From the NCBI RefSeq assembly GCF_046105845.1, contig NZ_CP151004.1: a DNA stretch of 64,000 bases; one strand, given 5' to 3'. The DNA comes from Escherichia coli. GTDB lineage: Bacteria > Pseudomonadota > Gammaproteobacteria > Enterobacterales > Enterobacteriaceae. Positions 3,913-4,532 of the stretch are shown here, piece after piece (positions within the stretch are counted from its first letter, which is position 1; every line of letters begins with the position of its first letter). The notes beneath the pieces are model-generated. The model had not been told where the DNA came from. It worked only from the letters and a program-made list of their open reading frames with translations, and ran no database searches. A program made the position numbers and the translations under genes.

Positions 3913-4532
3913 GGCACGGGCTGCTGGCGCTGATTTGCTGGCTGTGTTGTGTTGTTGCCCATAGCGAAATGCTGAATGTCGAACAATCCGGGCTGTTTCG
4001 CGCCTGGTTTGTACGCATTGCACAGGAACAGCTCCGCCAGGGGCCAAGTCCGCGCTGGTATCAGCAGGATTGTGCGGGCCTGGTGCGATTTTCGGCGAAC
4101 GAGGCGCTGAAAATTCACGACAGCAAATGGCTAAAAAGTAACGGCATAGCAAGTCAGTATTTGCCGCCTGAAATGACGCTAACACCTGAACAGCGTCAAC
4201 TGGCGCAAAACTGGAATCAGGGGAACGGAAAAACCGGCCCCTATGTGACCGCGATTAATTTGATTCAATATAACAGCCAGTTCATTGGCCAGGACATAAA
4301 CCAGGCGCTGCCTGGCGATATGATTTTTTTCGATCAGGGCGATGCCCAGCACTTAATGGTCTGGATGGGGCGTTACGTCATCTACCACACCGGAAGCGCC
4401 ACGAAAACTGACAACGGAATGCGCGCAGTCAGTCTGCAACAACTTATGACATGGAAGGACACCCGATGGATACCCAACGATTCCAATCCCAATTTCATTG
4501 GCATTTATCGTTTAAATTTTCTGGCGCGATAG
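3909..4532 (+). CDS. yfaT: DUF1175-family secreted protein (207 aa); NlpC/P60-like Cys/His motifs
   Basis: ORF track 3882..4532; ATG at 3909 overlaps the yfaA stop (ATGA); signal-peptide-like N-terminus [19 protein letters not shown]; motifs DCAGLV and GDMIFF...QHLMVW. Confidence 0.8.

Follow-up and report, generated by a model that had tools for sequence, protein, structure and literature searches.

Probable initiation of the macroglobulin gene yfaS at a conserved start codon inside yfaT: a 67-nucleotide overlap in Escherichia coli and related operons

Type II bacterial alpha-2-macroglobulins are encoded in an operon that has been defined and studied as magABCDEF in Pseudomonas aeruginosa (PMC3735191, PMC5764988). 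Here we analyze the junction between yfaT and yfaS in a 64,000-nucleotide (nt) stretch of Escherichia coli DNA (contig NZ_CP151004.1, assembly GCF_046105845.1), referred to as the window, in whose coordinates positions are given unless another locus is named. This region carries the gyrA-yfaA-yfaT-yfaS-yfaQ-yfaP cluster, which is matched by 5,393 of 5,426 complete E. coli genomes. The five yfa products match DUF2138, DUF1175 (now MagC in Pfam), MG2/A2M_BRD/A2M/bMG10, DUF2300 and DUF2135, and YfaS contains no C.EQ thioester motif; because of these matches and the missing motif, the cluster can be assigned to the type II alpha-2-macroglobulin operons (YfaS/MagD type). In the P. aeruginosa operon, magC-magD is the gene pair orthologous to yfaT-yfaS, but MagD is described from an ATGA stop/start overlap, whereas E. 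coli has lost that ATG, and yfaS most likely begins 67 nt before the end of yfaT.

Co-directional overlaps of this length stand outside what has been accepted as genuine. A survey of 338 genomes found none longer than 60 base pairs (bp) and attributed most candidates to misprediction of the downstream start; the longest overlap that it accepted was that of holD-rimI (32-56 bp), on the strength of conservation in both protein ends and in the DNA (PMC2478687). Like this enterobacterial pair, yfaT-yfaS is co-directional, out of frame and conserved at the nucleotide level across genera; unlike it, the overlap measures 67 nt, above the 60-bp limit, spans a wider range, from Enterobacterales to Pseudomonas and beyond, and involves on the downstream side the N-region of a signal peptide instead of mature protein. 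A second relevant precedent is the RNA-unfolding model of translational coupling, with the MS2 coat-lysis pair, in which the lysis start lies 50 nt before the coat stop codon (PMC12548453). As in the case of MS2, the downstream start would be embedded in the upstream gene, out of frame and tens of nucleotides from its end, within a hairpin (predicted here) whose other arm is near the upstream stop, so that a terminating ribosome could free it. In contrast to MS2, yfaT-yfaS belongs to a chromosomal operon, its overlap is 67 nt, coupling is only predicted, and most relatives keep a second start at the stop codon. Finally, the ordinary 4-nt ATGA overlap is the usual state of the yfaT-yfaS junction, as well as of the yfaA-yfaT junction in the window, whereas the yfaT-yfaS junction of the window reads ATAG, with the start-codon half gone. 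The literature search returned no paper describing a yfaT-yfaS or magC-magD overlap.

The elements of the junction are the following, all on the plus strand:
3909-4532, plus strand: yfaT coding sequence (DUF1175/MagC family, 207 amino acids), stop codon TAG at 4530-4532; the RefSeq extent is identical
4466-9070, plus strand: yfaS coding sequence from the proposed start (1534 amino acids), intact in the window
4466-4532, plus strand: out-of-frame overlap of 67 nt, holding YfaS codons 1-22 and the last 22 YfaT codons plus the stop
4453-4459, plus strand: Shine-Dalgarno (SD)-like GGAAGGA, 6 nt before ATG 4466; energy of pairing with the 16S rRNA 3' end, -5.5 kcal/mol
4451-4453, plus strand: alternative in-frame ATG, 82-nt overlap, without SD match; judged an unlikely start
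4529-4532, plus strand: ATAG, apparent remnant of the usual ATGA stop/start overlap; ATA is YfaS codon 22 and TAG the yfaT stop
4556-4558, plus strand: GTG start of the NCBI automatic annotation, inside the hydrophobic core, without SD match; judged incorrect
4526-4579, plus strand: hydrophobic core and cleavage region of the signal peptide; mature protein predicted to begin DDSLPSS at 4580

A preliminary description of this locus, made from the sequence, had proposed that yfaT ends at 4532 and that the only in-frame ATG codons of yfaS ahead of its hydrophobic core are those at 4451 and 4466, and both statements are borne out. YfaT ends in NFLAR followed by TAG, and its Pfam DUF1175 match (E 3.6e-58) reaches residue 205 of 207. 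The C-terminus is nearly invariant, the last 30 residues rank among the best conserved of the family, and the final residue is the same in 26/26 aligned homologs; since the stop position is common to all of these homologs, an earlier end of yfaT can be set aside. The yfaS frame is open from 4413, and no third ATG precedes the core in the window. The remaining start candidates, ATA 4529, TTG 4541 and GTG 4556, all lie at or inside the core. Among these candidates only ATG 4466 has an SD match, equal in energy to the SD sequences of yfaA and yfaQ; the corresponding values are -1.5 kcal/mol for both ATA 4529 and TTG 4541, +0.6 for GTG 4556 and +0.7 for ATG 4451.

Counted from 4466, the hydrophobic core of YfaS comprises codons 21-35, with the hydropathy peak at residues 19-30, so that the core and the cleavage motif (ANA followed by DD, to 4579) lie essentially 3' of the yfaT stop. 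The claim that the whole signal peptide is encoded within yfaT is hence mistaken: only codons 1-22 (4466-4531) of about 38 overlap, contributing the charged N-terminal part of the presequence (R5, K17). As judged by eye and by a hydropathy test, the presequence has the features of a Sec-type signal peptide cleaved by signal peptidase I, namely a charged N-region, a core and A-N-A before DD. Most relatives present A-x-A followed by D/E-D (G-D or Q-Q in a few lineages) and then a conserved mature N-terminus. A lipoprotein signal peptide, as found in the type I macroglobulin YfhM/ECAM, was considered and rejected: I-A-A-C (residues 22-25, window 4529-4540) matches the lipobox [LVI][ASTVI][GAS]C, but sits at the start of the core and not at its end, and its Cys, although kept in E. 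albertii, is absent at that position in Salmonella and Superficieibacter, and absent in Pseudomonas and most relatives.

We compared about 90 related loci, consisting of 80 loci encoding YfaT relatives in species-representative genomes and further loci reached through exact-protein look-ups (handles of the form L072 denote individual loci). The position equivalent to 4466 carries ATG in 80/80 sequences with a downstream macroglobulin gene, comprising the window and 79 close relatives from Escherichia, Superficieibacter, Enterobacillus, Edaphovirga and about 75 GC-rich Pseudomonas. Salmonella and Aeromonas loci, fetched separately, also carry ATG, and three more distant lineages (L089/L090, L093 and L095; about 50% YfaT identity, including a Xanthomonadales genome) carry GTG. 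Counting the window, its 79 close relatives and six additional loci that were fetched individually, every overlap-type locus with a downstream macroglobulin gene keeps ATG or GTG here. The sole close relative with another codon, CGC, is Candidatus Methylobacter oryzae (L072, 3001-3561), which has no macroglobulin gene directly downstream. Its YfaT homolog is 73% identical, the surrounding block is relaxed (CGC, AAA, GAT) and the yfaS-type frame contains a stop, and this locus can thus be read as a natural control for the upstream start.

The nucleotide sequence around ATG 4466 is conserved well beyond what the YfaT protein demands. The block concerned is:
4440-4475, plus strand: 12 yfaT codons with near-frozen synonymous sites (CAA CTT ATG ACA TGG AAG GAC ACC CGA TGG ATA CCC), holding the putative yfaS ribosome-binding region

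These codons (-30 to -19 of yfaT) have a synonymous pair difference of 0.056, the lowest of all 12-codon windows, the median over the gene being 0.32. The upstream ATG consists of the last base of a YfaT Arg codon and the TG of the following Trp codon, and it therefore needs CGA; this codon is found in 80/80 sequences, compared with 8.8% of Arg codons elsewhere in the same genes. Likewise, ATA is used in the block in 94% of cases vs 2% elsewhere, ACA occupies one block Thr position in 71/71 sequences and accounts for 48% of block Thr codons vs 5% elsewhere, and the second codon of the block is CTY across relatives. Between E. coli and E. albertii, codons 1-175 of yfaT show 35 synonymous differences and the final 33 show none, in keeping with the proposal that the overlap constrains both sequences, and the adjoining macroglobulin gene has a synonymous divergence (dS) of 0.83. 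No such freezing is seen at the yfaA-yfaT junction of this operon, where synonymous sites vary in the ordinary way.

The macroglobulin frame is also kept open over the stretch from the upstream start to the yfaT stop. We resampled the synonymous codons of the last 21 yfaT codons using the codon usage of each locus, and found that, given the YfaT protein, the window frame 4466-4529 would carry a stop in 87% of resamplings. Across loci, none of 49 distinct sequences contains a stop in this frame, against about 14 expected, while the other alternative frame of the same block contains 27, against 32 expected. When the same calculation is applied to the macroglobulin frame in earlier 21-codon blocks, 6/7 lie within about 25% of the expected number of stops.

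The relatives further indicate how E. coli came to lack an alternative. An ATG overlapping the yfaT stop as ATGA occurs in 70/81 sequences (the window and 80 loci), where it yields an ordinary signal peptide of 19-28 residues. Because ATGA is the usual state, the ATAG at 4529-4532 can be read as its degraded form. The same ATA is found in Escherichia (including E. albertii), Superficieibacter, Salmonella and one Pseudomonas, and CTG takes its place in six other lineages; GTG never does, and TTG does so once, in the distant relative L088. Such replacement by non-start codons fits neutral loss of a dispensable start. The macroglobulin genes without the ATGA start are nonetheless under strong purifying selection, the ratio of nonsynonymous to synonymous divergence (dN/dS) of yfaS being 0.039 vs E. 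albertii and 0.067 vs Superficieibacter. In the window no canonical start overlaps or abuts the yfaT stop (ATAG), so termination-reinitiation in its usual form does not apply. In several other lineages the upstream start is the sole route to a signal peptide, because no usable start precedes the core: the core begins right at the yfaT stop in L017 and L033 and inside yfaT in L089/L090 and L095, and L036 and L081 have no canonical start before it. We detected no canonical start between the 4466-position codon and the core in L017, L033, L036, L081, L089 or L095.

Together, these results make it likely that yfaS starts at ATG 4466 and that the 67-nt overlap is genuine; of the range of 67-82 nt given in the preliminary description, the unusual length thus most likely stands and the shorter value is favored. 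The explanation that we consider likely as a whole is that of a conserved start embedded in yfaT, on which the Enterobacteriaceae have come to depend after losing the ATGA overlap. Initiation at ATG 4466, in the -1 frame relative to yfaT, would be driven by GGAAGGA at 4453-4459, a sequence that the YfaT codons for Trp-Lys-Asp happen to spell, and the first 22 YfaS codons would supply the long, positively charged N-terminal part of a Sec signal peptide of about 38 residues. Most relatives retain a second in-frame start at the yfaT stop (ATGA), which the Enterobacteriaceae have lost through a change of ATG to ATA, so that they would now depend on the upstream one. The start region may moreover be paired with 4498-4521, in which case ribosomes finishing yfaT would open the hairpin and couple the synthesis of YfaS to that of YfaT.

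This last step is based on an RNAalifold consensus, with the following arms:
4453-4477, plus strand: predicted 5' arm of the hairpin, covering the SD and ATG 4466
4498-4521, plus strand: predicted 3' arm of the hairpin, 11-34 nt before the end of the yfaT stop codon

Over 52 distinct sequences, 95.3% of cells form standard pairs, compared with 33-48% when the partner is slid, and five pairs are compensatory, although the hairpin was derived from the same sequences used to test it and the columns are mostly invariant. Its energy ranges from -12 to -22 kcal/mol in the Pseudomonas loci evaluated. Coupling of yfaS to yfaT translation through this hairpin is put forward tentatively, as a possibility that falls a little short of an even chance. 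Between 4300 and 4700 there is no Rfam match at E <= 1 and no promoter-like or terminator-like site; because of the latter, an internal promoter or attenuator is unsupported. Frameshifting into yfaS was considered and rejected on inspection only, with no slippery heptamer visible in the block and every YfaT ending at the same stop.

Several observations weigh against initiation at ATG 4466 or against parts of the proposed mechanism. The literature search found no experimental N-terminus, ribosome-profiling or reporter data for YfaS, its sole E. coli match being an unrelated entry in a table, and the TRAINSPOTTER supplements contain no yfaS entry. The hairpin has little stability in E. coli (-7.4 kcal/mol) and is not predicted in Salmonella (+2.2 kcal/mol), and folding 140 nt of the window as a single sequence gives no gain in stability over shuffled versions (z = +0.82). 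The codon-resampling null is imperfect, since one upstream block deviates threefold: in codons -105 to -85 (window ~4215-4277), 13 loci have stops vs 40 expected, and no start site or other feature is evident there. The amino acid conservation of the YfaS N-terminal extension is uninformative on YfaS, because YfaT dictates those residues. Nor is the upstream start found everywhere. The more distant relatives L087, L088 and L094 lack it, with the macroglobulin beginning at or just after the yfaT stop, and L087 and L088 have stops in the macroglobulin frame; the upstream start is old and widespread, but not universal. The final codon of yfaT is kept as CGA or CAA in most Pseudomonas (as CGA in 39/45 cases where it encodes Arg), so that the ATGA start is preserved, and both starts appear to be under selection. 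Given this selection on the ATGA start, and given that the literature has P. aeruginosa MagD begin at that overlap, with 26 residues of signal peptide (PMC3735191), the upstream start may be minor in these species. Lastly, yfaS is a pseudogene in K-12 (L082) and is marked as frameshifted in the O157:H7 strain 146N4 (L086); decay thus seems to be under way in some lineages of E. coli, even though the dN/dS vs E. albertii is about 0.04.

The P. aeruginosa junction itself could be inspected in a locus labeled as this species (L096, GCA_049538095.1), reached via a fragmentary protein, in an assembly with many frameshifts that was used for the junction only. It presents the same frozen block, an in-frame upstream ATG and an open frame, and its ATGA-type start yields MSNLRRFSRSLAVAALVLLPFAAVQA, whose 26 residues match the stated MagD signal peptide. 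The magC tail of this locus (3950-4140) is 10 codons longer than in other relatives, ending in FLSMNRVPVKTTQ before the stop, and the upstream ATG lies 96 nt before that stop. In two NCBI proteins (P0270 and P0271) this stretch is translated in the frame of the macroglobulin (MNRVPVKTTAMSNLRR...), which points to a 1-nt difference among the genomes. P. aeruginosa MagC was not named among the top matches of the two homolog searches.

The apparent dual selection in Pseudomonas admits a broader reading, which we regard as rather unlikely, in which two in-frame macroglobulin starts are both under selection, one 66 nt inside yfaT, gated by a hairpin that opens only for ribosomes translating yfaT, and another at the stop/start overlap. 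Most species would then produce two precursors that differ in the length of the presequence, and translation of the upstream gene would set their ratio, whereas the Enterobacteriaceae would have come to depend on the long form.

Re-initiation at the near-cognate ATA 4529 after the yfaT TAG, which would reduce the overlap to 4 nt and make the upstream ATG a by-product of YfaT codons, is improbable. This codon occupies the exact position of the ATGA-type ATG of 70/81 sequences, and in Superficieibacter, Salmonella and L036 the residues that follow ATA resemble an ordinary signal-peptide N-region. ATA, however, is a very poor initiator, and here it has no SD match (-1.5 kcal/mol); the E. coli product would begin directly with the core, without a charged N-region, and the replacement of the ATG by ATA or CTG, never GTG and only once TTG (L088), points to neutral loss and not to maintenance of a start. 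Re-initiation would also leave the frozen block, the universal upstream ATG and the stop-free frame unexplained. Termination-reinitiation at -4 overlaps is, for its part, a well-described mode of coupling (PMC12548453).

There is little reason to expect initiation at ATG 4451, which would lengthen the overlap to 82 nt and add the five N-terminal residues MEGHP. The codon is in frame, no stop separates it from 4466 in the window, it is present in most relatives, and a JGI-called protein of a distant lineage (P0317) is annotated from this position. Against it, the codon lacks an SD match (+0.7 kcal/mol), its position reads CTG in several Pseudomonas (L051, L054, L073 and L077) and in Aeromonas, and in Salmonella it reads GTG, with a TGA intervening before the conserved ATG.

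Database annotations disagree on the start. The RefSeq record of K-12 (L082, MG1655, 3299-7903) places the start of the yfaS pseudogene 67 nt inside yfaT, equivalent to 4466, and the NCBI record of Aeromonas cavernicola and an NCBI protein of Cronobacter sakazakii also start at the upstream ATG. In five non-K-12 RefSeq E. coli genomes (L001 and L083-L086), sampled across the diversity of 5,381 matching genomes, the NCBI automatic annotation (Prokaryotic Genome Annotation Pipeline, PGAP) uses instead the GTG equivalent to 4556, 24 nt after yfaT, and other gene callers choose TTG, GTG or ATG codons inside the core. A homolog search with the macroglobulin N-terminus recovered mainly fragments and is informative only on this disagreement. 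Because the GTG lies inside the hydrophobic core, its product would have no signal peptide, and the automatic start is probably wrong.

That the overlap is instead an annotation artifact, with the true start at GTG 4556 or TTG 4541, or with a decaying yfaS whose start is irrelevant, is very improbable. The choice of GTG by PGAP, the absence of genuine overlaps above 60 bp from the genome survey and the pseudogene or frameshifted state of yfaS in K-12 and an O157:H7 strain speak for it. But both codons lie inside the core without SD match, are unconserved even in E. albertii, and would deprive a periplasmic macroglobulin of the signal peptide that it needs, MagD being periplasmic (PMC3735191). 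The dN/dS of 0.039 indicates in addition that yfaS is maintained in Escherichia. The ortholog-length rule of the survey would probably flag yfaS as a mispredicted start; the evidence assembled here for yfaT-yfaS argues against that verdict.

The annotation of E. coli SC455 (L084, NZ_LR778146.1, locus 450-482; window 4532-4537) is a case apart. A 5-nt insertion, AGCAG, directly follows the yfaT stop and places yfaS out of frame with both ATG 4466 and ATA 4529, yet the macroglobulin gene looks intact in the record, where the downstream GTG is taken as its start.

An equally slight chance attaches to the frozen 36-nt block being mainly an RNA element (a CsrA/RsmA site, or the arm of a structural or stability hairpin), with the ATG incidental in most species: the block does hold three GGA motifs (AUGGAAG, AAGGACA and AUGGAUA, 4452-4472) and takes part in the predicted hairpin, RsmA overproduction shuts off MagD synthesis and the mag operon leader is an RsmA target (PMC3735191), but the GGA motifs fall in predicted stems instead of loops, no Rfam family matches the block, and such an element would account neither for the stop-free macroglobulin frame downstream nor for an Arg codon that before a macroglobulin gene ends in A or G (ATG/GTG) and never in C or T, besides being compatible with a start site and not exclusive of it. 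Apart from the two Mag papers, the literature search returned nothing that connects RsmA with PA4490.

The other junctions of the window operon are tight as well: yfaA and yfaT share an ATGA overlap (3909-3912), the yfaS TAA is directly followed by the yfaQ GTG (9068-9073), and a 4-nt gap separates yfaQ from yfaP (10718-10727). This arrangement fits coupled translation along the whole operon. Of the 5,393 matching E. coli genomes, only 9 share at least 99% identity with the 3800-5000 stretch and the others share 95-99%, suggesting that the window carries an uncommon allele or lineage at this locus. In addition, YfaT (3909-4529) has a sub-threshold match to NlpC/P60 (E 4.4e-4, 20.6 bits vs a cut-off of 23), and an invariant D-C-A-G together with downstream His residues hints at a cysteine-peptidase-like fold.

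The K-12 record already carries the 67-nt overlap; the novelty of the present analysis lies in the evidence for its reality, its age and its constraint, and for a probable error in the automatic start call. The immediate consequence is that the predicted macroglobulin looks cytoplasmic in the five sampled RefSeq E. coli genomes, and that the GTG start hides at least one real frameshift (SC455). If initiation at ATG 4466 is confirmed, yfaT-yfaS would qualify as a genuine co-directional overlap, 67 nt long and shared between Enterobacterales and Pseudomonas, above the 60-bp limit of the survey. A start embedded in magC/yfaT and masked by a hairpin would tie macroglobulin synthesis to that of its partner protein, and, were this the case, magC deletions could directly alter MagD expression.

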